This document shows, piece by piece, positions 1 to 28,600 of a stretch of DNA of 56,671 nt. The stretch is from a virus (Duplodnaviria; Caudoviricetes): IMG/VR virus record IMGVR_UViG_3300014838_000024, positions 1 to 56,671 of that record. One strand, given 5' to 3'. The first letter of the stretch is position 1, and each line of letters starts with the position of its first letter. The position numbers and the translations under genes are program-made. The notes under the pieces were generated by a model. The model did not search any database, was not told the DNA's origin, and saw only the letters and a program-made list of their open reading frames with translations.

Positions 1-228
1 CCCATCATTGATCACTTCGGTGATCGCAATTGTCGGCTCATCAGGATTCGAGCCGAAGCACGAGGTTGCTCGTTCGAGAAGGACTCTCGCTCGTACATAC
101 AACTGCCGATCAAAACCCTCGATTTGCCTAATGATCAGGATCAAGAGCACTTCCTGATTCTTGGGCATCACATAATCAGGGAAATGCTGGACATCATCCA
201 GGAGGAGTTCGCTTATGCTCACTCGTGA
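1..228 (+). CDS. Partial CDS (5' truncated), possibly a deoxynucleoside monophosphate kinase-like protein
   Basis: Frame 1 is open from base 1 to TGA at 226-228. It reads ...LIRIRAEARGCSFEKDSRSYI..., resembling the C-terminal R-x-GC-x-F-x-x-DSRSYI motif of phage dNMP-kinase-like proteins, and overlaps the next start codon. Confidence 0.45.
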   Translation, partial: PIIDHFGDRNCRLIRIRAEARGCSFEKDSRSYIQLPIKTLDLPNDQDQEHFLILGHHIIREMLDIIQEEFAYAHS

Positions 229-907
229 GATGGTCGAGAATGCCCTCCCCTCAAATCTGAGGGGGGCGGCAACTCAGGCTTTTACAGATCAGATCAACAA
301 CCTGGTCCAAGATCCAATCGTCGCCGAGCAGATCAGGAACAACTTCGTGAGTTATACGAAGGTGCTTCAGGATGGCCGGTTCAAGACGGAGGATTACCTC
401 CACGCAGTCGCCTATGTCTCGTTCAAGCACATGGGCTACACGAACCAGGACGCCTACTGCAAGACGTTTCCACATCGTCACGCGATCTTGGTCGCAAAGG
501 GAATTTCTGCGAAGGATCTCTCGTCCTATGTGAGCGCCTACCACCACAATAAATTGGTGAATATGGTGATGGAACAATCACTTGTTCCTATGTGGATCAT
601 CAACCAGGATGCTTACCAGAAGGCGATCAACGCCCAAATGGACATCATGGACAACAGCATGTCCGACATGGCTCGAACAGCTGCTGCGAATTCGATCCTC
701 ACCCATTTGGCCAAACCAAAAGAAGCCGCTGTCAATTTGAGCCTTCATATGCCCGAGACTTCTGGGATGCTCGAGATGCGGGAGATGCTGCGACAGCTCG
801 CTCAAAACCAGCAACAAGCTATCGAGGCTGGAATGTCGCCTCGAGAGATCGCCGGCCAGAAGCTGATCGACGTGACCCCAAACCCACCAGAAAAGAGTGA
901 GCTATAA
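215..907 (+). CDS. N4 gp69-like conserved protein (putative terminase small subunit)
   Basis: 230 aa, GGAGGAG RBS, TAATG overlap with the large terminase. Position and sequence style match N4-like phages. Confidence 0.7.
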   Translation: MLTREMVENALPSNLRGAATQAFTDQINNLVQDPIVAEQIRNNFVSYTKVLQDGRFKTEDYLHAVAYVSFKHMGYTNQDAYCKTFPHRHAILVAKGISAKDLSSYVSAYHHNKLVNMVMEQSLVPMWIINQDAYQKAINAQMDIMDNSMSDMARTAAANSILTHLAKPKEAAVNLSLHMPETSGMLEMREMLRQLAQNQQQAIEAGMSPREIAGQKLIDVTPNPPEKSEL

Positions 908-2496
908 TGGAGCTCCTCAAGCAAGAACTCGACGAATGGCTCGATAGCGTCTCGTACAAGGATCTAAACGCTTCGAGCTATATGCCGAGTGACTTCGCAC
1001 TTACGTTCATGAACTTCATCAAGCTCGTGAATGGCAAAGAAGGTGAGTCGCATAAGACGCCTCCTGTGCATTTGAAGATGCTGGACAAGCTCGTTGAGGA
1101 CTCGCCCTATGTGGCGAATCTCTGTTTCCGTGGAGCAGCTAAAACCACACTCTTCATGGAATACTTCGTGCTCTTCCTGGCGTTCTATGGGTTTCTGCCT
1201 GGGTTCGGTAAAGTCGAGGGCATGATCTACGTGTCTGACTCCATGGAAAATGGTGTCAAAAGCGCCAGGAAGAACATCGAGTTTCGCTATAACAACTCTG
1301 ACTTCCTTCAGTACTGGATCCCGACAGCACACTTTACAGACAACTACATGGAATTCACTGGTCGAGAGGGAAACCGTCTAGGCGTGAAGATGTTCGGCGC
1401 TAAAACAGGTCTTCGAGGCACCAAGATCTTTGGAAAACGCCCTACGATCGCTGTGCTGGATGATCTGGTGAGCGATGACGATTCGAAGTCCCGCACCTCG
1501 ATGGAAGCCATAAAAGACACGGTTTACAAGGGTGTAAATCACGCTCTGGATCCCACGAGACGCAAAGTCATTTTCAATGGGACGCCATTTTCCAAGGAAG
1601 ACATTCTGATCGAGGCTGTCGAATCGGGTGCTTGGGATGTGAACGTCTGGCCGGTGTGTGAGAGGTTTCCCTGCACGCGCGAAGAGTTCATCGGAGCCTG
1701 GGAAGATCGTTTCATGTTCGATTACGTGCAACAACAATATGATATGGCCCTCAAGACGGGTAAACTCGCTGGCTTCTACCAGGAGTTGATGCTCAGAATC
1801 ACCTCTGCTGAAGACCGATTGATCCAAGACGAAGAGATCAAATGGTACTCTCGGGAGCAGCTACTCAACAACAAGAACACTTTCAATTTTTATATCACCA
1901 CGGACGTAGCGACTTCCACCAAACAAAAAGCCGACTTCTCTGTGATAAGTGTCTGGGCTTATAACCATTTGGGACACTGGTTTTGGGTGGACGGCATCTG
2001 TGAGCGACAGACGATCGACAAGACCTGGAATGATCTCTTCCGTCTGGTGAGTGAGTACAGACCTCAATCGGTTGGCATCGAAGTGACGGGGCAGCAACAA
2101 GCTTATGTGAGGCTTCTTCAATCTGAGCAGATGAATCGGAACATCTGGTTTACCTTCGCCAGCTCTGAGAAGAACAATGAGCCTGGCATCCGACCCACCA
2201 TCGACAAATTGTCTCGGTTGAACCTTGTAGTTCCTTGGTTCAAAGCCGGAGGCATGTACTTTCCTGAAGAAATGCGTCATTCTGTGATCATAGGGCACTT
2301 CCTCCAGCAGATCCGACTGGCCACCAAGAACGGACTGAAGGGCAAGGACGATTGTCTCGATACAATCTCGATGCTTGGCTACATGAAACCTTGGAAACCT
2401 TCTGAGTCGTCTCCTTTAATGGGGCACGAGGATGGTCCTTGGGAAGATGAGTCGCACGAAGCTGACAACAGCCCGCTCTCTGCCTACATTGTGTGA
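907..2496 (+). CDS. terL: Terminase large subunit (N4 gp68-like)
   Basis: Walker A-like CFRGAAKTT, Walker B VLDDL, coupling motif FNGTP, and nuclease motifs ITTDVA, DFSVISVW and DDCLDTISML. Confidence 0.95.
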   Translation: MELLKQELDEWLDSVSYKDLNASSYMPSDFALTFMNFIKLVNGKEGESHKTPPVHLKMLDKLVEDSPYVANLCFRGAAKTTLFMEYFVLFLAFYGFLPGFGKVEGMIYVSDSMENGVKSARKNIEFRYNNSDFLQYWIPTAHFTDNYMEFTGREGNRLGVKMFGAKTGLRGTKIFGKRPTIAVLDDLVSDDDSKSRTSMEAIKDTVYKGVNHALDPTRRKVIFNGTPFSKEDILIEAVESGAWDVNVWPVCERFPCTREEFIGAWEDRFMFDYVQQQYDMALKTGKLAGFYQELMLRITSAEDRLIQDEEIKWYSREQLLNNKNTFNFYITTDVATSTKQKADFSVISVWAYNHLGHWFWVDGICERQTIDKTWNDLFRLVSEYRPQSVGIEVTGQQQAYVRLLQSEQMNRNIWFTFASSEKNNEPGIRPTIDKLSRLNLVVPWFKAGGMYFPEEMRHSVIIGHFLQQIRLATKNGLKGKDDCLDTISMLGYMKPWKPSESSPLMGHEDGPWEDESHEADNSPLSAYIV

Positions 2497-2502
2497 GGAC
2501 AT

Positions 2503-3213
2503 ATGCTCGTTTCAGATCTCTTCAGTAAGCTCTCTTTCGGAGAGCTCTCGAACCTGGCTATGTCAGGCAATGGCAGTGGTACGATCGTCACGGCTCAACA
2601 GCCTAAGCTGATCGGTTATGCCAATGATGGCCTCCTTCGGTTGCACACGAAGTTCGTCCTCAAGGAGAACGATCTCCTGTTGCAGCTGTACGAGCACATC
2701 ACGTTCTATCACCTGATCCCGAGGTTCTCGATCCAATACACTCCTCCGGTTGGGACGGTTAATGAGCCTATTCGCTACATCTTGGATTTGCCGGAAGAGC
2801 CTTTCAATGATGAATTGCTGAAGGTTACTACAATATATGATCATCTTGGAATGGAGATCCCACTTAATAACGAAGAGAAGCATAATTCGTGCTTCACTCC
2901 ACAGGTAAAGCTGCTACAAGTTCCTAACCCGGTGGATGAAAAGTTCCTCACGGTTCGGTATCAACAGCGTCACGCCAAACTTACAGGTGACTTGGAGCAA
3001 TATATCTCTCTCCCTGTATCGCTCGAAGAGGCGCTGACATCGTTTATCGCGTTCAAAGTGTTCAGCCACATGAACACAGCTGATAGCAACTCGAAAGCTC
3101 AAGAGTTCAATCAGACGTTTGAACAGCTCTGTGGTGAAGTGACGGACAGGGATCTGGTCAGTTCCAGCATATCTCAGTCCAACATCCGGTTTAGTAGAGG
3201 AGGTTGGGTCTGA
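2503..3213 (+). CDS. N4 gp67-like virion (head-tail adaptor) protein
   Basis: 236 aa directly after TerL, with LSFGELSNL N-terminus and RFSRGGWV C-terminus as in N4-like gp67. Confidence 0.75.
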   Translation: MLVSDLFSKLSFGELSNLAMSGNGSGTIVTAQQPKLIGYANDGLLRLHTKFVLKENDLLLQLYEHITFYHLIPRFSIQYTPPVGTVNEPIRYILDLPEEPFNDELLKVTTIYDHLGMEIPLNNEEKHNSCFTPQVKLLQVPNPVDEKFLTVRYQQRHAKLTGDLEQYISLPVSLEEALTSFIAFKVFSHMNTADSNSKAQEFNQTFEQLCGEVTDRDLVSSSISQSNIRFSRGGWV

Positions 3214-3560
3214 TGGGACTATGCGAAACCACCAATTATTTCGGCGGCCTTGGAGGTGAAACCCCTGGCAGGCCATACAGCTATGGGCAGGGAGGTTATC
3301 TCCAACCCTATGGTGGCGCTCGGTTTGCGCCCATGGTTGACCGACTCATTGGCAATGCTTTCCCCACTGTGAAGTTCGTCGCCGACAACATGGATTATAT
3401 CCGGTATGTCGCGGACAACATGCTAGCGATCGTCACTCTGGCCGAATCCCAGGCAACTCAGATAGCCACGCTTCAAGCGCAGATATTGGTGCTTCAAGCT
3501 CTGGTGGTCCCGAGTTCTCCGACGATTGTAGCCCCTGCTCTCTCCATGAGTTCAGATTGA
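3213..3560 (+). CDS. Truncated tail-fibre/appendage anchor protein (resembles the N-terminus of N4-like gp66)
   Basis: ATG at 3213 overlaps the gp67 stop (TGATG). MVDRLIGNAFPTVKFVADNMDYIRYVADNM resembles the virion-attachment N-terminus of N4-like tail fibres. It is followed by a short heptad segment and a stop after about 115 aa. Confidence 0.6.
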   Translation: MGLCETTNYFGGLGGETPGRPYSYGQGGYLQPYGGARFAPMVDRLIGNAFPTVKFVADNMDYIRYVADNMLAIVTLAESQATQIATLQAQILVLQALVVPSSPTIVAPALSMSSD

Positions 3561-4404: not shown

Positions 4405-6330
4405 ATGACCGCACCCACAGTCGTAAGTTCTGCGTATCATCCTTGGACTGGCGCTTATCCGCTGGCCTCATCGAACACGTTTGACTCGACTGGCTGCGAT
4501 GGTGTGCTCGTTTTCTTTTTCACCCTTACGGGTGCTTCTTGGACACCTCCTCCGTCTTGTACCTATTTGGGACAGACGGCTACGCTTATTGGTCAGAGCT
4601 ATGTTTCGTCGCAGACTTCTGCGGGAACGCTCTATGCCTATATTGTTCGAGGTTTCACCCCCGGTTCCGGCACGCTTTCGGTCGCTCAGAGCTCGAATTA
4701 CGCTGACTCGGGCTGCGTCTACATCATTGGTCTGACTGGCACCCAAGCCACGCCAATTGGCAACTCGATCGTTCATGTTAGCGCCAGCCCGTCCGACACA
4801 CAGTCGGTCACTGCGTCTGCTGCCAATTCGCTCTTCATTGTGTTCGGTGGCGATGCTCAGGCCCCGTCGATCACGGTCACGCCTCCTTCGGGAGCGACAG
4901 CACTTCTCAACAACACCACAGCGACAAACAACCTGGGTAAGGTTCACAGCGTTACTGGTGTTTCTTCCGGAGCCAGTGTCTCCGAAACTTCGACGGCTCC
5001 TTACAACTACACTTCAACTGCCGTCATTGAAGTGCTTGGTTCTGGTGGTGGTTCTGGCATAAGCTTGACGCTGACGACACCTCTCTCGATTACGCCTGCC
5101 TTGGGCGCTGAGACGGTGACGATCCCGATCATTGTGAGCGCCAGTCCTCTGTCTTTGAGCCCGGCTCAGCTTTCAGGCAGTGTCACAGCACCTCTCGCCA
5201 TCACAACTTCGCCCTTGGCTTTGACCCTGGGACAAGGTGCAGGCACGGTTCTCGATCCTGTAGGGATCACGTCTGGACCCTTGAACCTTAGTGTTCTTCT
5301 TGGTTCAGGCGATAGCGTCACTCTCCCAATCATCATAAATTCTGGGCCTCTGAGTGTTCTCACTCAGCTGACGACACCGAGCTATTTGAGCTTCCCGCCG
5401 ATGGTGGCTGGGCCTCTTGCTTTGAGCGTTGTCCAAGACGCTGGAAATGTGATCCAGCCGCCTCAGATCTCGTCTGGGCCTCTCTCGTTGAGCGTTGGCA
5501 ATGGCGCTGGAAGCGTTCTCGTCACGCCGGTCATTTACTCCTACGGCCTAAATTTGAGTGTCGGGTTTATTCCCGGTGTTCCCAGTGTGATAACGCCTCC
5601 ACTGATCACCACGGCACCACTTTCGATCTCACCTCTGATGGACGCATCTGCGGTGATTGTTTTCCCTGACAACATCATCTCATGGCCATTGTCGTTGAGC
5701 ATAGGGTTCCCTGGACCCAGCAACGTAATCACTCCAGCCGTGATCACGGCTACGGCTTTGAATGTGGCTGTGAACAACCACGTTGGTGAAGTCGATGTCG
5801 CCATTGTGATCCAAGCTCCTCCTTTGTCGCTCTCGTTGGGGAACGGTTCGGGAAGCATCGCCATTCCGGTGGCTGTCTACAGTGCTCCCTTGAGTCTGAG
5901 TCTCGGGCTCACGCCGTTGAACATCATGGCACCAGTCTTGATCGTTGTGCCGCCTTTAAGTTTGTCTGTGCTCTCTTACACGGGTACGATCACAGACCCC
6001 TTGGGCATCTATGCAATCCCGCTGTCGCTCACCCTCGGGCTTCAGGTGGACACGATCATCCAGATCCCTCCTCCGATTCAAGCTCCGGCTTTGAATCTTG
6101 GGATCAATTTGACCCCTGGATACGTTTCGGACCCGGTGGGGATCTATACATTCCCGCTCTCTATATCCGTTGGTCTAGGTTCAGTGAACCTTCCAATCAA
6201 TCTCTTTGTCGATCCTCTGAAACTCTCCTGGGGTCGAGTTCCTCCTGTGTATGTTGATGCACCCAATCTGAACATCTTGGTCGGGCTTCAACATCCATTC
6301 ACTCATCCTCCGACAGTCGTAGTAGGTTAA
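4405..6330 (+). CDS. Fibre protein: N-terminal beta-rich (putative receptor-binding) domain, then about 18-19 degenerate 22-aa repeats
   Basis: About 210-aa S/T-rich globular domain, GSGGGSG linker, then repeats of xxxPLSLS(V/L)GxGxGSVxxPxxI. Almost no charged residues. Confidence 0.65.
   Translation: MTAPTVVSSAYHPWTGAYPLASSNTFDSTGCDGVLVFFFTLTGASWTPPPSCTYLGQTATLIGQSYVSSQTSAGTLYAYIVRGFTPGSGTLSVAQSSNYADSGCVYIIGLTGTQATPIGNSIVHVSASPSDTQSVTASAANSLFIVFGGDAQAPSITVTPPSGATALLNNTTATNNLGKVHSVTGVSSGASVSETSTAPYNYTSTAVIEVLGSGGGSGISLTLTTPLSITPALGAETVTIPIIVSASPLSLSPAQLSGSVTAPLAITTSPLALTLGQGAGTVLDPVGITSGPLNLSVLLGSGDSVTLPIIINSGPLSVLTQLTTPSYLSFPPMVAGPLALSVVQDAGNVIQPPQISSGPLSLSVGNGAGSVLVTPVIYSYGLNLSVGFIPGVPSVITPPLITTAPLSISPLMDASAVIVFPDNIISWPLSLSIGFPGPSNVITPAVITATALNVAVNNHVGEVDVAIVIQAPPLSLSLGNGSGSIAIPVAVYSAPLSLSLGLTPLNIMAPVLIVVPPLSLSVLSYTGTITDPLGIYAIPLSLTLGLQVDTIIQIPPPIQAPALNLGINLTPGYVSDPVGIYTFPLSISVGLGSVNLPINLFVDPLKLSWGRVPPVYVDAPNLNILVGLQHPFTHPPTVVVG
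5070..6290 (+). repeat. Degenerate protein-level tandem repeat (about 66 nt / 22 aa)
   Basis: Units such as TSGPLNLSVLLGSGDSVTLPIII, SSGPLSLSVGNGAGSVLVTPVI, QAPPLSLSLGNGSGSIAIPVAV and YSAPLSLSLGLTPLNIMAPVLI. Confidence 0.85.
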
Positions 6331-6331
6331 C

Positions 6332-6583
6332 ATGACCTGGACTCCAGGAAGCGCAGTAACTCCTCCGCTTACAATTCCCGCTGGTGAGAGCGTCACTGTG
6401 ACGGTGAAGTTCACCCCAACGGTGGCTGGAGCTCAGACTGGCTCGCTTGGAATAATGTCCAATGCTCCTTCAAGTCCAGATGCTCTACCTTTGTCAGGTA
6501 CTGGAACCAGTGGGACTACACCTGCACCAGCAGTTTCCCTTTCGGTCACTTCGTTGACCTTCCCCAGCACGGCGGTTGGATAA
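6332..6583 (+). CDS. Small linker protein: C-terminal half of one ASH domain plus the first strands of the next
   Basis: LTIPAGESVTVTVKFTPTVAGAQTGSLGIMSNAPSSPDALPLSGTG, then PAVSLSVTSLTFPSTAVG*. Confidence 0.7.
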   Translation: MTWTPGSAVTPPLTIPAGESVTVTVKFTPTVAGAQTGSLGIMSNAPSSPDALPLSGTGTSGTTPAPAVSLSVTSLTFPSTAVG

Positions 6584-8010
6584 TGGCTACTTCGGCTTCT
6601 CAGCGGATCACGCTTACAAACACCGGCACTGCTCCCTTGGTGATCTCTGGGATCACAGCTACGGGTGATTTTGCCGATGTCACCGACTATTCCGTGTCGG
6701 TTCTCGCTGGCGGTGTCTGCCATATCGACGTGACTTTCACTCCCCTAGCTGTGGGTTCTCGAACAGGTACGATCTCAATCGCCTCCAATGCGCCTGGATC
6801 TCCTCATGTCGTGACCTTGGGAGGCACAGCAGTTCCTGCGGTTTTGCCAAGGGTCTCTGCCTTGGGAAATCAGTTCATGGCTGCCGGTGCTCCCATTCGT
6901 TTGAAGAGCATCAATTGGACTGGTGGCGAAGGCACCAATTATGCGCCTCATGCTTTGTGGGCTCGTTCTTGGAAGAGCCAGCTCGATCAGTTCAAAGCCA
7001 TGGGTTTCAATTGCTTGAGGTTCCAGCTTTCTGGTGACTTCTGTGCGAATCCCTTGATCACATCCACAGCTATTGATCCCACGAAAAACCCTGATGTTGT
7101 GGGCCTTACGACCTTGGCTTTCTTGGATCTGATTGTCGCCTACTGCAACACGATCGGCATGTATATCGTGCTTGATCATCACAGGTGTTTTGCCTCTGGA
7201 GGCACAGGCACCGATGGTTGGCCAATGGCCGGTGGGGCAACTGGCTCTTATAGCCAGGCCCAGTGGATCACCCACTGGTCAGTGCTCGCCACTCGATATG
7301 CTTCCAGCACGGTGGTCATTGGTGCTGACGTTCACAACGAGCCCTATGCGATTGAGTGGGCTTATTGGGCTCCGATGGTTGAAGCCTGCGGTAATGCTAT
7401 CTTGGCGATTGCGCCAAATTGGCTGATCTTCGTCGAGGGTGACACCAATTGGACTGGTGCAGCTTATTACCCCACAGCAACGCTGACGAGCGACTCGATC
7501 TGGTGGGGTGGGCAGCTTATTGGCGCTCAGCCTGGCAACCGACCCATTGTGCTCTCGTCTCCCAATCATGTGGTCTATGCGCCTCACGAGTATGGAACAT
7601 CTGTATCTGGCCAGACTTGGCTGGCAACCTCATCGAGCGCACCTACTGGGTGGCCAAACAACCTTCAACCGATGTGGAGACAGCATTGGGGTTGGGCTTT
7701 CGAACAGAACATCGCTCCGATCTGGGTTGGTGAGTTCGGAGGACAGTTTGGTTTCGCCAATGCGACAGGTGCAGCCAATGGCAATGCCAATGCACCCACA
7801 GAGATCGTCTGGCTACAGACACTCATGAAGTATTTGAATGGTGATTGGAACGGAGACGGCACCAATCATCTCACTGGTTCGCAGTTGGGTATGTCATTTG
7901 CCTACTGGAATGACATGCTGAGCGGTGATACAGGGTCTCTAGTCATCGACAACGATCTCACAACGCCTCAGAGTGGCAAACTAGCCCTCCTCACCCCGCT
8001 CATCCCGTAA
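6583..8010 (+). CDS. GH5 endoglucanase (cellulase) with an N-terminally incomplete ASH Ig-like domain
   Basis: GH5 motifs: INWTGGE, MGFNCLRF, IVLDHH, DVHNEP (acid/base Glu), NWLIFVEG, WWGG, VVYAPHEYG, PIWVGEFGG (nucleophile Glu), SGDTG. No signal peptide. Confidence 0.93.
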   Translation: MATSASQRITLTNTGTAPLVISGITATGDFADVTDYSVSVLAGGVCHIDVTFTPLAVGSRTGTISIASNAPGSPHVVTLGGTAVPAVLPRVSALGNQFMAAGAPIRLKSINWTGGEGTNYAPHALWARSWKSQLDQFKAMGFNCLRFQLSGDFCANPLITSTAIDPTKNPDVVGLTTLAFLDLIVAYCNTIGMYIVLDHHRCFASGGTGTDGWPMAGGATGSYSQAQWITHWSVLATRYASSTVVIGADVHNEPYAIEWAYWAPMVEACGNAILAIAPNWLIFVEGDTNWTGAAYYPTATLTSDSIWWGGQLIGAQPGNRPIVLSSPNHVVYAPHEYGTSVSGQTWLATSSSAPTGWPNNLQPMWRQHWGWAFEQNIAPIWVGEFGGQFGFANATGAANGNANAPTEIVWLQTLMKYLNGDWNGDGTNHLTGSQLGMSFAYWNDMLSGDTGSLVIDNDLTTPQSGKLALLTPLIP

Positions 8011-8019
8011 GAGGGCTCC

Positions 8020-8370
8020 ATGACAACCGCACAAGAAGCCAACTTCACTGTTACTCTGACCCCTGCTCCTACGGTTACAGTGCTGCTCAACTACACCACA
8101 AGGGATGGAACGGCCACTGCTGCCAGCGGAGCTTACACTTTAACTTCAGGAGTGTTGACCTTTGCTCCAGGTGAAACCGTGAAACACGTCATTGTTCCGG
8201 TCAGTCTGCCTCTTGCGCCAGGTTCTGCCGCTGAACTCTTCTATCTCGATGTGACTTGGCCTTCTGGTTCGGTTAACACGATCACACGCAGTCCAGGTAT
8301 TTGTAACCTTCCAGGCAATACAACTACCCCACTGCCTTCTGTCTCTATCTCTAGTCCTTCGGTGGTGTGA
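8020..8370 (+). CDS. Calx-beta domain protein lacking its first strand and ending in a Calx-beta-like first strand
   Basis: FTVTL...VLLNYTTRDGTATAASGAY...SGVLTFAPGETVKHVIVPV; C-terminus LPSVSISSPSVV. Confidence 0.85.
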   Translation: MTTAQEANFTVTLTPAPTVTVLLNYTTRDGTATAASGAYTLTSGVLTFAPGETVKHVIVPVSLPLAPGSAAELFYLDVTWPSGSVNTITRSPGICNLPGNTTTPLPSVSISSPSVV

Positions 8371-8373
8371 TCC

Positions 8374-11199
8374 ATGACAACCTTCAGCACAACTCGTATT
8401 GCAAACTTCGTGGTCACGCTCAGTGCAGCGGCCACGGCAGCTTGTTCGGTCAATTACGCCACGGTCGATGGAACTGCCATTGGTGGAACCGACTACCAAG
8501 TGACCACGGGCGTTTTGAACTTCGCCATCGGTGACATCACCAAGACGATCCCTGTGCCTTTGAATGCACTTTCGGTTGGTGGGCTCACTTTCGATATGCT
8601 CTTGTCCTCTCCCGTGGGCTGCACGATCACCACTGGCGAAGAAGGCATCGCCACCATTGGCGTCGTCACTCCTCCGGTCACGTATTTGAGCCGGTTCGAA
8701 TGGACCTATAATACGCTCAAGCTGACCACGAACGGCTATTTTGGTCCCACCACGGGAGGATCTACCCTCGCCTTTCAGTGCCCTTACCATGCACGCGAAA
8801 ACGCTATTATCGTTGAAGCTCCTGACTGGTGCCATGAGAGCGTTTCCGAGACGATCTCTTTCTGGGCCAAACTGGAAGCCTGGAAGACGATTGTCGATGG
8901 CACAACCACAGGCATGGCTGCCTGCTGGGCTTCGATCGAGGCGAATTATATTCCCACTCCCACAGTTGGTCAGCTTTGGGGAGCTTATACTCCTGCTTCT
9001 CCCGCAGGTTATGAGCCTGACGCTGCCACGATCGCTTTGACCCCGGTTGATTACAATACGACAGTGACGGTTGGCGCTGATCCGCTCTACACCGAGCTCG
9101 TTGCCGCCTACACCGGCAAAGACGTGTATCTGATGCACTGGCTCTATGATGTGGACGGAGCCTATGGTTTCCATGGCGCTGATGGCACCACAAAGCTCAT
9201 GGCTCCGATCAACAACTACCAACGTGGCCCGGTCGAAGATGGCTTGGCCACGATCACGCACTGTTGCTACGAGGACTACAAGAACGGTGGTCAGCCTATT
9301 GGTGCGAGCGGGTTTGGCTTCTTGCCAATTTATGACCAGGCTCCTCCGACTTATTCGAGCAGCGCCAACCCCTACTCTTACAGCGCCCAGTGGACGTATT
9401 CTTGCGCCCCTGACGCTGAGAGTCGGGCTATTGGAGCCATCTATGCGGCTCACACGCTCTCTACGGCGGCAGGCATTGCACCTATTGCCACGAAGTCTAT
9501 GAAGATGGCCGATTATATGCGGTACGCCTTCTACGACAAGTACTTCGTGCCGATCCACAATTATGCTGGCACGCTCATGAATGGTGCTGGCAAACACTAT
9601 CTGCTCAGCTGGGGTGCTGGCTTTGGTGGCGGCATCATCGTGCCTCCAGGCACGGCTTCCTATTGGGGCTTTCGCATTGGTTGTTCAGAGGTTCACTTTG
9701 GGTACAACTGCGTCGATGTGGCTTATGCCTGCATGACGGGGCAGGATTTCGCGCCTCTGGGAGCCACAGCTGCTGCTGATTATGCGACATCCTTGGATCG
9801 ACAGCTTGAATTGATCCGTTGGCTTCAAAGCCCTGCTGGACCGATTGCTGGTGGTGTGACCTCCAACTGGAAGGGTGTCTATGGCACCCCGACAGATGCT
9901 CGTGTGAGCGCCCAGTTCTATGGGATGAACTACACTTATTCTCCGAGCTGGCATAACCCGCCTTCGAACAACTGGACTGGCTATCAAGCATGGGGCCTCG
10001 GAAAAGTCTCGCAGCTTTATGCGACAGTCTGCCAGAAGACCGACACAGTGTCGTTGAGCCTGATCACTCGCTGTGGTGTGATCTTGGATCTGTGGGTTCA
10101 GTGGTTCTACACCAATTGCGTAATGGACCTCGTGAACGGTTCGATGGCCTATCCGATCAACTCGTCCTGGACGAGCCCTACGGTTGTGAGTGGTCATACT
10201 TCGACAGTTGCCACAGCAGCGGGTGACTATGAGTATTTGCCCACGTTGAACTGGGACTCGACTGGAAATTACGCTACCTTCTGGTCGGCGAGTGCTGTCC
10301 CGAACCCGAACCTGCTCTATACGACCACATCGACTGGCTGGGATCCTGGAACAGCTGCTGGCTTTGCTCAGGTTCTCATCCAGTATGCTTATGCCAAGTC
10401 CAAGCTCACTGGTTCTTTGACGGGTATAATCCCCGGAGGAACAGCTACATTCCAACAAGTGCTGACCAAAGCCCAGCAAATGATGGAAGTTGTCTGGTGG
10501 AACCAAGATCCAGTTGGGTTCGGTTCCATTGGTTCGCTTGCTCTTCCGAGACTGAACGACATTCTCTGGATCCCGACTCAGTTTGGGACTGGTGCAATGC
10601 CTAATGGAGAAGTGCTCGCTCACGGTGTGACGACTTTCAAGAGCGCCAGAATGAGCCTCTATTCGACGACTGCCAACTGGTCTGGTGTGCAGACCTATCT
10701 GGCAGCAGTTGCAACGGCTTATCCGACGATCTCTGGTATGTGGGTGGCCAATAACGCTCCTGCTTTGAACGCTGCTTTGAATACGATCGCAGCTGACACG
10801 ACACTTCCGATCGCTCCTTCGGTCAACTACCATCGGTTCTGGAATGGTGCTGATGTGGCTGTGGCTTTCGCTATGTTCCAGCAGTATTTCCCGACACTGG
10901 CGGTGCCCACATTCACCACGCCTTTCTCGCCTTGCTGGGTCAATGCTCAGATCAATTACGCTGTGTTCTTGGCGACAGAGTATGGATCCACCACAACCAC
11001 CAGAACAGCAGCAAAAGCTGCTTGTCTGACGGCTTTGACCAGCACTCTAATGAGTGGAGCTCAGGTGACTGCCATGACAACGGCAATCAACACCTGTGTC
11101 GATGCTTGTGTGGCAGCTCTGGCCACCCCAGCGACCTATGCAACGGTGTCAGCAGCGGCAATTGCCACGGGTATTACGGCTGCACTCGCTGCAATGTAA
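8374..11199 (+). CDS. Calx-beta + glycoside hydrolase family 48 (processive exo-cellulase-like)
   Basis: GH48 motifs in order: PYHARE..IVEAPDWCHESVSE, YLMHWLYDVD, INNYQRG, QWTYSCAPDAESRA, KMADYMRYAFYDKYF, HYLLSW, FRIGCSEVHFGY, SLDRQLELIRWLQS..GPIAGG, FYGM, YHRFW..DVAVA. N-terminal Calx-beta VNYATVDGTAIGGTDY. Confidence 0.93.
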   Translation: MTTFSTTRIANFVVTLSAAATAACSVNYATVDGTAIGGTDYQVTTGVLNFAIGDITKTIPVPLNALSVGGLTFDMLLSSPVGCTITTGEEGIATIGVVTPPVTYLSRFEWTYNTLKLTTNGYFGPTTGGSTLAFQCPYHARENAIIVEAPDWCHESVSETISFWAKLEAWKTIVDGTTTGMAACWASIEANYIPTPTVGQLWGAYTPASPAGYEPDAATIALTPVDYNTTVTVGADPLYTELVAAYTGKDVYLMHWLYDVDGAYGFHGADGTTKLMAPINNYQRGPVEDGLATITHCCYEDYKNGGQPIGASGFGFLPIYDQAPPTYSSSANPYSYSAQWTYSCAPDAESRAIGAIYAAHTLSTAAGIAPIATKSMKMADYMRYAFYDKYFVPIHNYAGTLMNGAGKHYLLSWGAGFGGGIIVPPGTASYWGFRIGCSEVHFGYNCVDVAYACMTGQDFAPLGATAAADYATSLDRQLELIRWLQSPAGPIAGGVTSNWKGVYGTPTDARVSAQFYGMNYTYSPSWHNPPSNNWTGYQAWGLGKVSQLYATVCQKTDTVSLSLITRCGVILDLWVQWFYTNCVMDLVNGSMAYPINSSWTSPTVVSGHTSTVATAAGDYEYLPTLNWDSTGNYATFWSASAVPNPNLLYTTTSTGWDPGTAAGFAQVLIQYAYAKSKLTGSLTGIIPGGTATFQQVLTKAQQMMEVVWWNQDPVGFGSIGSLALPRLNDILWIPTQFGTGAMPNGEVLAHGVTTFKSARMSLYSTTANWSGVQTYLAAVATAYPTISGMWVANNAPALNAALNTIAADTTLPIAPSVNYHRFWNGADVAVAFAMFQQYFPTLAVPTFTTPFSPCWVNAQINYAVFLATEYGSTTTTRTAAKAACLTALTSTLMSGAQVTAMTTAINTCVDACVAALATPATYATVSAAAIATGITAALAAM

Positions 11200-20172: not shown

Positions 20173-20886
20173 ATGGCTGAAGTCCTTGATCCTGCGATCG
20201 ACAATCCGATTATTCCTTCTGTCGATGTGACTGGACCTTTGTTCCAGATCCCTGAGATCGCTACCGATGCCATGTATGCCAAGATCCTGCCTTTGGATAT
20301 GACGGCATTCACCACAGGCACTCCGGCAGGGACAGGCTTCTTTGATCTGCTCATGGCCTCGTTGAAAGCTCAGCTCGATGTTGAGTTCCAGAACAACCGG
20401 ATCACAGGTGCCGAGTACACCAAGGCGTACATCGAGCTCACTCAGAGCGCACTTCAGACGAGCTTGCAGTTCCTCCTGGGTAAGGGTCAAGCGTTCTGGC
20501 AGGAACAGTCTGGGCAAATTGCCGCTGTGACTGCTCGTATCGCCTTGGAGAGTGCTCGTTTCACCTACCAGAACATCCAGCCAGCCCAGCTTCAATTGCT
20601 CAATGAGCAGGGGGATCAGGCTCGTGCTCAGACGAGTGACACTCGTTTGGATGGTCTTCCGGTAGCTGGCGTCATGGGCGCACAAGAGTCGCTCTACCAG
20701 CAGCAGATCATTTCCTACAAGCGAGATGCTGAGGTGAAAGCCGCCAAGATCTTCACGGATGCCTGGATCACCCAGAAGACCATGGATATTGGCCTCCTAC
20801 CGCCTGTCGGCTTCACGAATGACAGCGTGAACGAGATCCTCACGGTCCTCATGGCGAACAATGCCTTCGGAGCTCCGACAGCGTAA
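20173..20886 (+). CDS. N4 gp54-like virion (tail) protein
   Basis: GTGFFDLLM, NRITGAEYTKAY, YKRDAEVKAAKIFTDAWITQKT. Confidence 0.8.
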   Translation: MAEVLDPAIDNPIIPSVDVTGPLFQIPEIATDAMYAKILPLDMTAFTTGTPAGTGFFDLLMASLKAQLDVEFQNNRITGAEYTKAYIELTQSALQTSLQFLLGKGQAFWQEQSGQIAAVTARIALESARFTYQNIQPAQLQLLNEQGDQARAQTSDTRLDGLPVAGVMGAQESLYQQQIISYKRDAEVKAAKIFTDAWITQKTMDIGLLPPVGFTNDSVNEILTVLMANNAFGAPTA

Positions 20887-23012
20887 TGGGCTTCTTTCAA
20901 GGCTCCAAGCAGATAGCTGTCTCGTCCTCGGTCTGGAATTTGGCCGGGGACGTGACCAAGCGTCCAAATTTTCTCGAGACAACTGTGCTGGGGGCTACAC
21001 TCTCCAGCAGTGATCTCGATATGTGTGAGCAGTTGAACAATGCTTACATCGGTGGACCTGGTATTCAGATCCGTAATTATGGGGATTGGGCTAACCAAAG
21101 TGGGTACAACACCACCATTGGCATGAATGCCTCGACTCTAAACATTGCTCCTCCAATTGATCCGACAGTCTTGGCACCTTTGTTGCCTGTGGTTACTGGA
21201 GAAACCACTCTTATTCAACAAGACGCCATTGGGTATGGGGATTATACCTATTGGGTCGATCAATATATGCTTATTCATTACCCTGCTCTGATCTCGACGG
21301 CTTACAGCTGCGATCTGGATACGACGACCAACATTGTCACGATCACTTTTGCCGACACCACGACGACAACCTTCGCTCTCTCTGGGTTCAATCCCGGTTT
21401 GAGGTATCTCTATGTCGTCTATAACTATGAAATTCCTCCGGTTTTGCCGTCCACAACGCCCACTTATTCGCCGCTGACGATGCTCATATATCAGCAGGGC
21501 TCAGGCACTCCGGCTTTGGACGCCCTCTTCTCGGCAACCTCTTCGGGGGACTATTTTCTCCCTTATATACCTTTCTTGGTGGACAAGAATATCGTTGGAC
21601 CGAGCACGTTTCCTGCGGTCTATACAGCTTCAAAAGAGGCTCTTCGTAGGTCCATTGGAGCTGACTACGACGAGCTCATAGTCAAGATCCTGGAAAACCA
21701 TTCGATCGCTGATGTGGATTACATCTATGCAGTGTTCGGGGTGGCTCTTAATGTGCTCGAAAACTCTTGCCGGATGTACATTTATCAGTTCTTCTTGGCT
21801 GCTACAGCTGGCCAAGACTTGACACTTCCGGCTGCTATGTACACTGGAGGCACAGTTGTTGTGACTTCCAATGGTGCTTGGTTCATGGACTATTGGCAGC
21901 AAGTGCTCTGGACCGGCTGCACAGAAACCAAAGGCACGGGTCTACTCACCAATGGAGACACTGGGAACCCAGCCAAGGTGAACGATTGTTGGTTCACCAT
22001 TGAGTATGACACGATAGTTTCCAACCAAGTGAAGTCTGCGGTGAGACTCACCTGGCAAGTCGATCTAAACAACTGGCGATACCTGATCATCTACGACCTT
22101 GAACACCTCAATATGATCTATGGTGGCAAGGGAGTGATCACTTACATGGGGCAAGCTCTGGCTGACTCCAATGAGAGCAGCTTTCTGATCCCCTTGAACT
22201 CAGCTGTTTATGCGGCAATGTCGCTTAAAGACAGCACTCAGATGTGTACGGCTTGCTGTTATCTCGTGTTCAACTGCTACACAGTGAAGCGAGCGCCATG
22301 GTACACAGCAGGTTTCTTTAAGGTGCTCCTGATCGTAGTGGGCATTGCCTTGTCCATTGTGCTCGGTGGAGCAGGGGGTCTTGGTCTTCTTGGTTCGAAC
22401 ATTGCCGTTGGAACCATGTTCGGCTTCACTGGAACCATGGCGGTCATCGCTGGAGCGATAGCTAATGCTCTCGCAGCTATGGTTCTCTTGCAGGTTGTGC
22501 AGTGGGGATCGACGAAACTCTTCGGTCCTCAGCTTGGAGCGATCATTGGAGCCGTGGTTGGGCTCTTCGCAATGCAGATTGGCACGGCTCTAGCCAATGG
22601 CATGAGCATGTCAGCTCTCTTCAACCTGCTTACACAGCCGGCCAACCTCATCAAACTTACGGAGGCCGCCGGTAATGTCTATGCTCAAATCATGCAGATT
22701 CAAGCTCAAGACATCAATACCTCGACACAGACGATGGAAAACAGCTATAATGTCGCAGACGCTAAGATCCAGGCCCAATGGGTGCAAGAATTTGGGACTG
22801 GTGGAGGCGCTGATCTGGCAATCAATCCGTTAGCTCTGACTGATACGGCTCTCCCCAACGTAGGACCGAACATTGTCCTGGCAGAGTCTCCTTCGAGCTT
22901 CTTTAGTCGGACATTGCTCTCAGGAAGCGACATCGCTGACCTGTCATTGAGCTATGTGAACAACTTCTGCGATGCCAACATCAGCACTACGCTGCCCACC
23001 AACCAAGCTTGA
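20886..23012 (+). CDS. N4 gp53-like virion protein
   Basis: MGFF..VSSSVWNLAGD N-terminus, C-terminal hydrophobic TM-like helices, and the ESPSSFFSRTLLSGSDI motif. Confidence 0.75.
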   Translation: MGFFQGSKQIAVSSSVWNLAGDVTKRPNFLETTVLGATLSSSDLDMCEQLNNAYIGGPGIQIRNYGDWANQSGYNTTIGMNASTLNIAPPIDPTVLAPLLPVVTGETTLIQQDAIGYGDYTYWVDQYMLIHYPALISTAYSCDLDTTTNIVTITFADTTTTTFALSGFNPGLRYLYVVYNYEIPPVLPSTTPTYSPLTMLIYQQGSGTPALDALFSATSSGDYFLPYIPFLVDKNIVGPSTFPAVYTASKEALRRSIGADYDELIVKILENHSIADVDYIYAVFGVALNVLENSCRMYIYQFFLAATAGQDLTLPAAMYTGGTVVVTSNGAWFMDYWQQVLWTGCTETKGTGLLTNGDTGNPAKVNDCWFTIEYDTIVSNQVKSAVRLTWQVDLNNWRYLIIYDLEHLNMIYGGKGVITYMGQALADSNESSFLIPLNSAVYAAMSLKDSTQMCTACCYLVFNCYTVKRAPWYTAGFFKVLLIVVGIALSIVLGGAGGLGLLGSNIAVGTMFGFTGTMAVIAGAIANALAAMVLLQVVQWGSTKLFGPQLGAIIGAVVGLFAMQIGTALANGMSMSALFNLLTQPANLIKLTEAAGNVYAQIMQIQAQDINTSTQTMENSYNVADAKIQAQWVQEFGTGGGADLAINPLALTDTALPNVGPNIVLAESPSSFFSRTLLSGSDIADLSLSYVNNFCDANISTTLPTNQA

Positions 23013-25603: not shown

Positions 25604-28600
25604 ATGACTGACGTGTCTGACCTCATCAATACTGCTGCGAATGGTCCTGCTCCGAGTGTAGACGCTCCTGCTCCTCCAACTAATCCTGGGCAAGAGAAGC
25701 TTGGAGCCCTCATGAAGGGGCTTCCTCAGCAGAAACAACAGGAAGTTGCTGCCACAGCTGACGCTAAGCGTGTCGCTCTCGGTGGTATGCCTGATGAGGA
25801 GACCTTTAAGAGCGCAGCTATTGCTCGTGTCACTGGTGCAGGTGTAGCCAGCGCCAATCCGATCGAGCATGACTTCGCTACGATGGCGTGGCCCGATGTC
25901 GAAGCCAAATATGGTCCAGAAGCTGCTTCAAATTTGCTTCATGCCACGACAAATTATCGCAATCTGTCGGTGGGAAATCGTGGAACCGATGGTCTCATTA
26001 GCGTCAGGACCAAAGACCTCTTCAAGAGTGCTGCTCTTGGTGCTGGTGAAATGGTTGGAGGCATTGGAGCTCTCGGTCTAAGTGGTCTCGATGCTATCGG
26101 TCGTCAGGTCGGTGCCGATACTCATATGGGTGTCTGGGCTTCAAAAGAGATCAAAGATGCCGCAGACCGGATTGAAGGCACAGAGAGTCCTTATCTCAGG
26201 AACCTTCGTAAAGCGAACCAAGAAAAGGGAGAACTTAATACTCGAGATAATGCTGCTCAAGCTGAAATCGACAAGGCCAATGGCGATGGAGAAATCGTCT
26301 CTGGTTTGAAGGAAATTGGTCGGAACGCTCTCGATAGTTTTGGAAATGTGATCGAAAATCCAACGCTCTTGAGCGATGCTTCTGCTGGTGCTCTTGGTTC
26401 AGTTGTAGCTGGTGGTCCCATTGCCAAAGGCGTTGGCTTGACTGGGAAAATCATTGCTCCTGCGGTTGAGAAAGCTGCGACTTTGGGTCTTGGAGGTGTC
26501 TCCAAAGGCATGGTCGCACTTAACGAAGCTGGTGCTCCGAGAGCTGCGCAACTTTTGGGTGATGCAGCCTCGGGTGTGGGTAAAGTTGGGAAGTATCTTC
26601 CTGGTGAAGAGAGCATTGGTGTCGGAGCGATGTTTGGTGGTGGATCCTACCAACAGACGGCTGCGAATATCGCTTCGATGGATCCTGAAGAACTTAAAGC
26701 GAAGTCTCCCTATTTCAGAGAGCTTCTCGCCAAGGGTATGAGCCCTGAAGACGCTCAGGCTCAAGTGGCTGACAAAGCTGGCCAAATGGCAGGTGCAATC
26801 GCTGCTCCTGCTGGCATGGTGGCCGGTGCCCTTGCCAAGAGTGTGATCAAGAGCCCCTTCACTTCGGAAAGCCTCCCGGATGCTGCCTACAATGTTGTGA
26901 AAAGCACGGGTGAGCAGGCTCTTCAAGGTGGTGCTGGTCAGGCTGCAAATAACGTAGGTGAGCAGCAATATGCTGACCCAAACAAAGATCTCACCCAAGG
27001 TGTCGGTGAGGCTATGGGTTCAAGCCTTGCGGGTGGTCTCGGTGCAGGTGTGGTAATGGCTGCTCCTGGAGCAGCTGTTCATACTGCTGGCGTGGCTAAA
27101 GACGCAGTGAAAGCGAGCTTCAATGCTCGACTTGACAAACTGGCTGCTGCCAATGAGGCGAAGAACCCTTCTTCGGATGCGAACATCTCGGCTGCCAGTG
27201 CTGCTGCCAGTGAAGCCATGCAGGACCGAACTGCTCACGAGTCTCTCGCAGATGCAGTGATCAGAGCTCACACCAATGACGACATAACGCCAGAGAACCG
27301 TGCCAAAGATGTATCTCTGGCCGACAAGATCACAAGACTGGGTGTGTTCAGTTCCAAAGAAGTATCTTCTGAAGGGCTTGACCCTGAACTGAAGACTGAT
27401 CTGGATGGCACTACCAATCGGGTGGATGCTCTTCTGCACATGGCGAACAGCGTCAACGAGCATGGTGCCGACTCAATAGAGGGGCTTTCTGCTGCTCGTG
27501 AGCTGAACAAGTTCCTTGGGCACTATGAAGACCTGATCAATAGCGATCAGAGAGCCTTCGCTGCGATCGACGACCATGAACCTGCTGGAAAGCTGAACAA
27601 CGAGTTCAATGTGCTCGCTGATCATCTCATGAGCAATCCGACGATCCAAAAAGCCATGACTAAAGTTCGTGGTCTCTCGGAAGAAGCCATTACAAAGCTG
27701 GTCAATCCGATCACTGAGGAGAGCCTCAAGTCAGGTAAAGCCCAGACAGATGCTGAGAACATCGCTGGATTGGCGGCTATCGTTCCAGAGAATAGCAATC
27801 TGGACGCCATAAACTCAGTGTTGAAGCACGCCACTGAAGGTGGTGACGGCAAACTGCATCTTTCTGCGGAACAACACCAAGCTCTCCTGGCTGCATGGTC
27901 GCTGCTCACTGCGTCCAAAGATTCGATTGATCGCCAGAAAAAGATGGGCAACAAAAACCAGTTGAATTCAGTCTCCAGCGATGTGTTGTCAGAACCAGGG
28001 AAAAAAGGTGACACAGCCCTCTCAGCATTGGCGTTTACTAAGCGCATCTTCAATAACATGCGTGCAGGTAATGTGGACGCTGCTCGTCAGGAGCTTCGTA
28101 ATTTCGGCATGTTCACTGACCATATGGCTAACAAGTCTGATGCCGTGAACACCCACTATACCAATGGTGACGGAAAGTCGGTGCCCTTCAAGGCTCGTAA
28201 TTCCGAGACGAACGAATGGTACAAGTCCTATGCGCCTATAATTCATCCGAAGAATGCTGTTTCGGTTGAGCTCGCTCAGAGGATCAACCTCGAAGCCAAG
28301 CGAACCAATGACATCTACAACAATCTGACCAAGGCTTTTCCTGAACTAAAAGGAAAAGAAAAGAGCGTCGCTGACCTTCATCCCAACTTGATTGGAGATT
28401 CCAATGCAGTGGCTAAAGCGCATTCTAAGAATGAGCGGGTTCAACCGAAAACTGACAAGTCTGTGGTCCCCGTTGAAGCAGACGCTGAAGGAGCACCTGC
28501 CTCTATTGTTCCCGTTGGTTCCAGCGAAGCCGGATCTGCTCAGAAAGATGAAGCGCCGGCCCTTCTGAAGGCTCCTACGGTCGGCAAGAACTACATCGCA

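Follow-up and report, generated by a model that had tools for sequence, protein, structure and literature searches.

A stop-start junction inside an Ig-like domain of a phage cellulase locus, with strand donation as its candidate role

Why should the gene for a phage cellulase begin in the middle of a domain, at a start codon that overlaps the stop codon of the gene in front of it? The question is raised by a viral sequence of 56,671 nucleotides from the Caudoviricetes (IMG/VR record IMGVR_UViG_3300014838_000024; this whole stretch is called the window here). In it, the letters TAATG end a small open reading frame (ORF), ORF B, and start ORF C, which encodes a GH5 endoglucanase behind an incomplete Ig-like domain of the ASH type. 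A preliminary description of this DNA, made from its letters, had proposed a gene fission that left the upstream protein to donate the missing first strands to the enzyme, with ribosomal recoding as the alternative. Here we report that the break is real and that it divides the domain at a loop. In addition, we consider it reasonably probable that the two coupled polypeptides reassemble, the upstream protein donating strand A to the enzyme's Ig-like domain.

The stop-start junction and the domain that it divides

The elements needed first are the following:
6332-6583, + strand: ORF B, 83 amino acids, frame 2
6527-6580, + strand: candidate donor strand (strand A of the second Ig-like domain), the last 18 amino acids of ORF B, ...SLTFPSTAVG
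6581-6585, + strand: TAATG stop-start, in which the ORF B stop and the ORF C start overlap, -1 frame
6583-8010, + strand: ORF C, 475 amino acids, frame 1; Ig-like domain without strand A, then GH5
6586-6843, + strand: Ig-like domain of ORF C without strand A, residues 2-87
6907-7824, + strand: GH5 endoglucanase domain (Pfam PF00150), ORF C residues 109-414

The junction carries exactly the letters that had been quoted for it: GGA (6578-6580) is followed by TAA (6581-6583), the last base of which opens the ATG of ORF C (6583-6585), and the DNA reads ACG GCG GTT GGA TAA TG GCT ACT TCG. For both ORFs the annotated ATG is the first ATG, GTG or TTG past the preceding in-frame stop. The same one-base overlap also joins 215-907 to the terminase gene at 907-2496, and 20173-20886 to 20886-23012. 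TAATG overlaps thus make up 3 of the 23 junctions listed in the window and are an ordinary junction type for this phage.

The virus record was assembled from a metagenome and is incomplete, and compared with its fused relatives the locus has three cuts. It might therefore be suspected that the break is an indel from assembly or sequencing, or that a decaying tail gene was inactivated recently. Contigs from four public runs, belonging to four different studies, were aligned to the site. In 4/4 runs they cross 6575-6590 with 0 indels and with 0 substitutions at 6581-6585, and a single contig across 6200-7000 shows 9 substitutions and 0 gaps. The contigs thus keep the break and do not support a continuous ORF; the stop-start break is real and not an assembly artefact. 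Both lengths are kept in close relatives as well, since the representatives of the 90% identity clusters of ORF B (P0124, 96% identical to the window) and of ORF C (P0004, 98%) have likewise 83 and 475 amino acids. An isolate genome has the same kind of split (see below), and the split is kept at approximately 50% sequence identity with the GH5 motifs intact, which argues against a pseudogene. An artefact or a fresh pseudogene is, in our judgement, hardly credible. Contigs of run X8, a peat metatranscriptome library, cover 6237-6387 and 6419-6725 with 0-1 differences; DNA may be present in such a library, so these contigs are no proof of transcription. A contig from the RNA library also crosses, unchanged, the junction between ORF B and the gene upstream of it, ORF A.

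Which part of the domain lies on which polypeptide is seen from the profile matches. In Pfam, ORF C residues 4-82 align to DUF1573 (positions 18-97 of 98; 31.8 bits, cut-off 26.1), and residues 4-81 to the HYDIN/VesB-like Ig family (HYDIN_VesB_CFA65-like_Ig; positions 20-99 of 100; 30 bits, cut-off 25.5). Since these matches begin only at position ~18-20, the first ~18 profile positions are absent from ORF C. No single polypeptide holds the whole Ig-like domain: ORF C covers profile positions ~18-99, and the first strand is encoded by ORF B. ORF B residues 13-58 form the C-terminal half of a preceding ASH-type domain (27.3 bits, cut-off 27, profile positions 60-97 of 98), and the 25 further residues consist of a short linker followed by the donor piece.

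Tails of 27-30 amino acids matched 0 Pfam families on their own because they are too short. Against a hidden Markov model (HMM) built from 41 homologous domains that occur in one piece, the donor piece of ORF B aligns to positions 4-25 with 10.2 bits, and ORF C 1-92 alone to positions 27-110 with 83.1 bits. A read-through sequence (last 24 amino acids of ORF B, X, ORF C 2-92) matches in a single stretch, positions 5-110, with 99.4 bits, compared to a mean of 83.0 bits (standard deviation 1.9, maximum 87.5) for twenty shuffled tails in place of the ORF B tail. With the same HMM, the read-through of two further split loci scores 108.1 bits against 92.5 for the downstream part alone (L017) and 102.8 against 94.2 (L005). 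The in-silico fusion therefore outscores its parts, as had been predicted, and the removal of TAATG restores a seamless domain, the register of which equals that of the fused relative P0022. This protein of 574 amino acids is a natural single-chain counterpart of ORF B plus ORF C, and its AlphaFold2 model (mean predicted local distance difference test score, pLDDT, 87.4) places pieces of strand A at 96-98, 102-104 and 108-109, a loop at 110-116 and strand B at 117-123. The window break maps between G111 and D112, inside this A-B loop, which agrees with the location at a loop claimed earlier.

The enzyme itself looks intact, judging from its profile match and its motifs. The GH5 profile is matched with 129.9 bits (cut-off 23.5, E 1.7e-37), and the closest solved chains are CelE2 (8fc0, 8.9e-64) and endocellulase E1 (1ece, 3.1e-60). 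N252-E253-P254 (NEP) and E384 (GEFG) are invariant in 9/9 sequences of one alignment (A1) and in 7/7 of another (A2); E253 of the NEP motif and the later E384 are presumably the two GH5 catalytic residues. Cellulase activity is known for the relative S6 gp095, which degrades carboxymethylcellulose (PMC9544554, in the part available to us).

The Ig-like domain of ORF C also shares 50-59% identity with individual domains from large 'choice-of-anchor D' proteins (loci L102-L176), and these matches come from Acidobacteriota/Terriglobia and some actinomycetes. The stretch or parts of it are present in at least 20 public runs from 15 studies, with peat, permafrost, lake and fresh water among the matches listed. 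Taken together, this likeness and the occurrence in peat, permafrost and lake may be a hint to the source of the domain or to the host.

Split and fused relatives

The GH5 domain of ORF C is found in cultured phages of Erwinia, Klebsiella, Serratia and Pseudomonas (34 records, 40-45% identity), and the fused relatives include Parlo gp069, Pavtok gp15, Fifi067_00006 and P0022. Virus, metagenome and genome collections yielded 35 distinct sequences that align from the start of the ORF C Ig-like domain into GH5. The great majority of these loci (33/35) are fused, with at least 88 open codons upstream, and two, L005 and L017, are cut where the window is cut. The latter share 50-52% identity with the window over the first 140 residues. 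In L005, the upstream ORF ends with ...ALTFPDTTVG and the junction GGA TGA A ATG (+1) leads into MATSAAK; an isolate contig (L097) of Rhodoblastus acidophilus DSM 142, a cultured and harmless bacterium, has an identical junction. In L017, the upstream ORF ends with ...TLSFPDTTV and is followed by GTC TGA CCC ATG in frame and by MPTSAAK; a single base change in this junction would join both genes again. The three junctions for which DNA is available thus differ in their frame relation (-1 in the window, +1 in L005, 0 in L017), and at all three the distance from stop to start is 0-6 nucleotides. The junction has been rebuilt between lineages, yet stop and start stayed together.

At the protein level, downstream partners that begin with M[AP]TSA at the same residue are window/P0004, P0007, P0009/P0010 and P0011/P0012. 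The identity among the split downstream partners is 47-59% in the Ig-like domain (75.6% for P0009 vs L005) and 55-69% in GH5. Upstream partners from four 50% identity clusters (P0167, which is that of L005, P0286, P0314 and P0222) end at most one residue from the same point, on ...L[TS]FPDT.[VI](G). They vary in size, with 303 amino acids for P0286, 306 for P0314 and 482 for P0222, which contains three whole ASH domains. The C-terminal motif L[TS]FP[SD]T.V is common to L005, L017, P0286, P0314 and P0222 as well as to ORF B. Between lineages, the upstream tails are identical at 10/15, 9/15 and 9/14 positions (60-67%), compared to 18/52, 19/48 and 17/60 (28-40%) for the remainder of the stretch of 83 amino acids.

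Further searches added little. A single-protein scan of viral contigs with ORF C gave no relative, and a scan with the ORF B alignment gave the L005 contig as sole result. ORF B matched 41 longer proteins, all of them large bacterial multi-ASH 'choice-of-anchor D' proteins that are uninformative on the split. Such proteins also dominated the representative search with the L005 upstream protein, in which 4 of the best 150 matches were informative.

The first explanation to be weighed with these junctions is recoding, i.e. a frameshift or stop readthrough that yields a fused ORF B-ORF C protein. Programmed frameshifts reportedly add some Ig-like domains to phage structural proteins, as Fraser et al. 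are said to have described in 2006, and UGA followed by C is a leaky stop context. The L017 junction and two junctions in Calx-beta domains (in the window and in L006, see below) are in-frame TGA codons followed by C or T, and some readthrough is conceivable there. However, the ASH junctions would require shifts of -1, +1 and 0, and no slippery heptamer of the type X XXY YYZ lies ahead of the TAA in the window. Moreover, the 117 nucleotides downstream fold like shuffled sequences (z -1.52; 13/200 shuffles were as good), and Rfam gave no match above chance in 5800-8800 (one match, E 0.67). Every stop has an ATG after it, and TGA is an ordinary stop in L017 as well as in the window. Thus, neither a heptamer nor a stimulatory structure nor a conserved frame relation, the marks of a programmed frameshift site, was found. 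The alternative offered by the preliminary description is thereby largely removed, and we regard recoding as very improbable. A reassigned stop codon at the in-frame TGA junctions was considered separately and dismissed, because the conserved C-terminus of GH5 in L017 and 13 of the 24 genes listed in the window end with TGA.

How often the split arose was approached with two trees. In a GH5-only tree (89 rows, quick method), the seven split forms fall into at least three groups parted by starred branches, and their nearest neighbours are fused forms. In a tree of the Ig-like domain without strand A (48 rows, 90 columns), all seven split forms are one group, with a value of 81 in the Shimodaira-Hasegawa-like approximate likelihood ratio test (SH-aLRT; branch not starred). 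The split Ig module is found on at least three separate GH5 lineages and behind two anchor types, that of ORF A in the window and that of Pavtok/Parlo in L005 and L017. The simplest reading would be one old fission, after which the split Ig module was moved by recombination onto different catalytic domains and behind these two anchor types; several independent origins of the split are the alternative. In either case, the genes have stayed split while the sequences diverged to ~50% identity and the junction was rebuilt at least twice. The gene fission proposed earlier is thus supported by the fused relatives and by diverged lineages that kept the split, but the event is old and shared and not private to the window genome.

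Strand donation and the neighbouring breaks

In the explanation that we prefer, ribosomes finishing ORF B would restart at the overlapping ATG, and both chains would therefore be made in matched amounts. Most genes of the window have a GGAG-type Shine-Dalgarno motif ahead of them, but neither the start codon of ORF B nor that of ORF C has a strong one. The upstream protein would then insert its C-terminal strand into the enzyme's incomplete Ig-like domain and complete the beta-sandwich. This insertion would tie the cellulase non-covalently to a carrier, as in donor-strand complementation, and two features of such a pair are seen in the sequences: an acceptor Ig-like domain without strand A and a conserved donor motif at the C-terminus of six upstream proteins. 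The carrier would be the anchor protein itself in L005, L017, P0286, P0314 and P0222, and the 83-amino acid ORF B in the window. In the former five, the anchor domain sits on the strand donor, which makes for a simpler model than in the window. For the window, the earlier view of the upstream protein has to be corrected: the putative donor is an adaptor-like piece of 83 amino acids and not the anchor protein itself. The stop-start would mark the border of a module, where one enzyme cassette could be swapped for another.

The anchor would in this case lie one gene further upstream:
4405-6330, + strand: ORF A, 641 amino acids, frame 1; the N-terminal ~215 amino acids are homologous to the N-terminus of the fused cellulases
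6328-6334, + strand: junction of ORF A and ORF B, TAA, one base (c), ATG; +1 frame

The N-terminal part that ORF A shares with the fused cellulases is presumed to be the virion anchor. It is 49% identical (188/380) to the N-terminal half of a one-piece cellulase of 767 amino acids (L006-type). ORF A also matches the PHROG 'minor tail protein' with 1e-05 and no family in Pfam. Its residues ~226-641 (5080-6330) contain 14 motif-matched repeats of the PLSLS type with a spacing of ~22 amino acids, likewise without a Pfam family; they may form the shaft of a fibre or a series of strands for docking. In the L006-type protein, four PLSLS-type repeats lead into a half ASH domain (58% identity to ORF B) and finally into GH5. 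Because this protein runs straight through the equivalent point, the junction of ORF A and ORF B is a second break. Seven homologues start at the start point of ORF B (P0005, P0006, P0022, P0030, P0031, P0037 and P0055), which makes it a recurrent gene boundary, and a half ASH domain directly after the PLSLS repeats is a native architecture.

A further, independent stop-start inside an Ig-like domain lies 1.8 kb downstream of the ASH break, in front of a GH48-like gene:
8020-8370, + strand: adaptor-like small ORF, 116 amino acids; Calx-beta from profile position 21 of 119, linker, tail ...LPSVSISSPSVV
8368-8376, + strand: second stop-start in an Ig-like domain, TGA TCC ATG, in frame
8374-11199, + strand: GH48-like ORF, 941 amino acids; Calx-beta without the first ~22 profile positions, then GH48-like

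Residues 9-68 of the GH48-like ORF align to Calx-beta profile positions 23-83 of 119, the GH48 match has an E-value of 2.3e-15, and the protein is homologous to Fifi067_00007 (40% identity over 2-804). A consensus of tandem bacterial Calx-beta domains (194 domains) reads ...LPTLS[IV].D.SVTEGNSG ahead of the shared ...FTVTLS core; since the tail LPSVSISSPSVV resembles this stretch, it looks like the missing Calx-beta strand A. The read-through scores 90.8 bits vs 84.7 for the enzyme N-terminus alone, a smaller gain than in the ASH case, and 20 shuffled tails reach a mean of 86.2 bits (standard deviation 0.99, maximum 89.7). The same arrangement is found in L006 (6670-6830; tail ...VVSINNVSVS, TGA CCT ATG in frame) and in L005 (8560-8760; tail ...VVSINNVSVPNP, ATGA overlap), with a gain of 7.4 bits in each. 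A Calx-beta domain without its first ~20 profile positions also opens Parlo gp070, Pavtok gp16, Fifi067_00007 and relatives from Klebsiella phages, and 44 of 260 Calx-beta matches have at most 25 open codons upstream (e.g. L001 at 6014, L002 at 5447, L003 at 5375). The cellulase genes of Parlo, Pavtok and Fifi067 were inspected at their ends for a donor strand that could serve the adjacent Calx-beta proteins, and none was seen.

The latter observation bears on the second explanation to be weighed, a tolerated split in which the GH5 protein is free and soluble, released at lysis or held otherwise, and the upstream strand is a leftover that does not bind. If phages carry strand-less Calx-beta starts with no donor visible next door, an Ig-like domain without strand A may be viable alone. 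A free enzyme would also agree with the lack of an anchor domain on ORF B in Pfam and PHROG, and with a complex prediction that favours binding weakly. On the other hand, a useless tail should drift and its stop should wander, but five diverged upstream proteins and ORF B all run through strand A and stop within one residue, and the tail is better conserved than its surroundings. We therefore regard a tolerated split as unlikely.

The complex predicted for ORF C 1-92 and ORF B has an interaction score (ipSAE) of 0.36, compared to 0.00 for the best control. At least 95% of the contacts agree between runs, with a pLDDT of 56 or more for the partner. Calibration gave 58/80 solved complexes and 2/110 mismatched pairs that reached the mark; at scores up to 0.60 these were only 7 of the 80 solved complexes, but both of the passing mismatches. 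These counts are only a rough guide here, because own alignments were used, and halves of one domain may reach the mark merely by their likeness to solved whole domains.

Strand donation, which we prefer, thus also has to be held against several observations. The physical binding of ORF B and ORF C is something that we infer, and the modelled complex favours it weakly. ORF B has no recognisable anchor domain, so that in the window the chain to the virion would depend on a putative link from ORF A to ORF B. In the AlphaFold2 model of the L006 segment with the repeats and the half domain, the mean pLDDT is 53.5, and it is below 50 for residues 1-116; the model thus gives no view of a completion of the ORF B half domain by the last repeat of ORF A. 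The split is the minority state (2/35 distinct loci), and since the split forms are one group in the Ig tree, the shared break position may trace to a single event, which would speak for retention and not for repeated invention. Finally, close variants of ORF B differ by 4 bases, which result in 3 amino acid changes and 0 synonymous ones, all in the half-domain part, and they give no short-range sign of purifying selection there. What stands of the earlier proposal is that the candidate donor piece is the better conserved part and that the upstream ORF ends right after it.

The phage and comparison with known systems

The window is a linear virus record that is ~77% complete, with a GC content of 51.7% and no N. 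An ORF of 3754 amino acids (25604-36868) matches phrog_2206 'virion RNA polymerase' over profile positions 27-3405 of 3406 with 2343 bits, and a giant virion RNA polymerase gene is the hallmark of N4-like (Schitoviridae-like) phages. The window also encodes a portal protein and a large terminase, and its genes follow each other (terminase, small structural genes, cellulase, GH48-like) as they do in Erwinia phage Fifi067 (Schitoviridae). By its gene content the window is thus an uncultured N4-like phage; a search of the phage collection with the window DNA gave no near-identical record.

Attachment and exchange points of enzyme-bearing receptor-binding proteins on phage tails decide the host range. 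If strand donation holds, a break in the A-B loop would turn an Ig-like domain into a simple, portable connector, with one strand on the carrier and the rest on the cargo, and this would explain how one cellulase cassette can be found behind unrelated anchor domains. For annotation it would follow that a short C-terminal ...LxFPDTxV tail and, after it, an enzyme gene starting in mid-domain should be read as a pair instead of a pseudogene. Split-domain tags, and depolymerase swaps in engineered phages, could be modelled on this natural connector as well. In a more general form, which we put forward as tentative, the Ig-like domain of a glycosidase minus its first strand would be a socket and the C-terminal strand of an anchor or adaptor the plug. 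Such a pair would occur twice in the window with unrelated Ig folds, for ASH-GH5 and for Calx-beta-GH48-like, the junction being the recombination seam for cassette swaps among phages whose anchors differ. In its boldest form, drawn by analogy to phage A1002 (see below), the 14 PLSLS repeats of ORF A might be a 'rope' of further plugs, and phage tail proteins that start with a strand-less Calx-beta domain might dock likewise.

Completion of a domain by another polypeptide has a precedent in donor-strand complementation and exchange in chaperone-usher and type V pili, where a second polypeptide supplies the edge strand that an Ig-like fold lacks. The geometry proposed for ORF B and ORF C is that of type V pili, in which the C-terminal strand of a neighbouring subunit takes up the N-terminal strand position that has been vacated. 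Unlike the pili, the window, which is known from sequence and prediction, has different proteins, no chaperone or usher, and a putative one-to-one link instead of a polymer.

Among the systems closest to the window are the cellulases of cultured phages. S6 gp095, Fifi067_00006, gp069 of Serratia phage Parlo and gp15 of Erwinia phage Pavtok also have GH5 (41-45% identity) behind Ig-like domains of the ASH type, and the one-piece tail cellulases of cultured phages lie beside a GH48-like/Calx-beta protein in N4-like genomes, as in the window. In contrast to the three ORFs of the window, anchor, Ig-like domain and GH5 are one ORF of 652-844 amino acids in 3/3 annotated records examined. For Erwinia phage S6, cellulose is the first receptor (PMC9544554, available part).

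A divided tail protein has been described for the Pseudomonas podophage A1002, in which one tail protein is encoded by two genes and the missing beta-strands are filled by the partner ('structural complementation'), and in which fibre dimers dock on a repeat-bearing rope protein via beta-sheet augmentation (available part of PMC13730344). There, the split concerns the beta-propeller/platform of the nozzle and was seen by cryo-electron microscopy; in the window it concerns an Ig-like domain before a glycosidase and is read from sequence. No homology between the two was found in the comparison with the available text, and none is claimed. In the full texts searched, we found no description of an Ig-like domain that is divided between the tail enzyme of a phage and the protein carrying it; subscription journals and supplements lay largely outside this search. 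The accessible part of a preprint on Klebsiella receptor-binding proteins (10.64898/2026.05.12.724579) contains 0 mentions of donor, split, complementation or augmentation.

A separate enzyme chain on another tail protein is nevertheless established. In the adapter and branched tailspike systems of K1E/K1-5, G7C (gp63.1-gp66) and CBA120, the enzyme-bearing receptor-binding protein is a chain of its own that sits on another tail protein (PMC9569702, section 2.4). These proteins attach with whole N-terminal domains, and a domain split between partners is absent from that section. The boundary between the chains lets enzyme modules be exchanged in these systems, as it would in the model proposed for the window.

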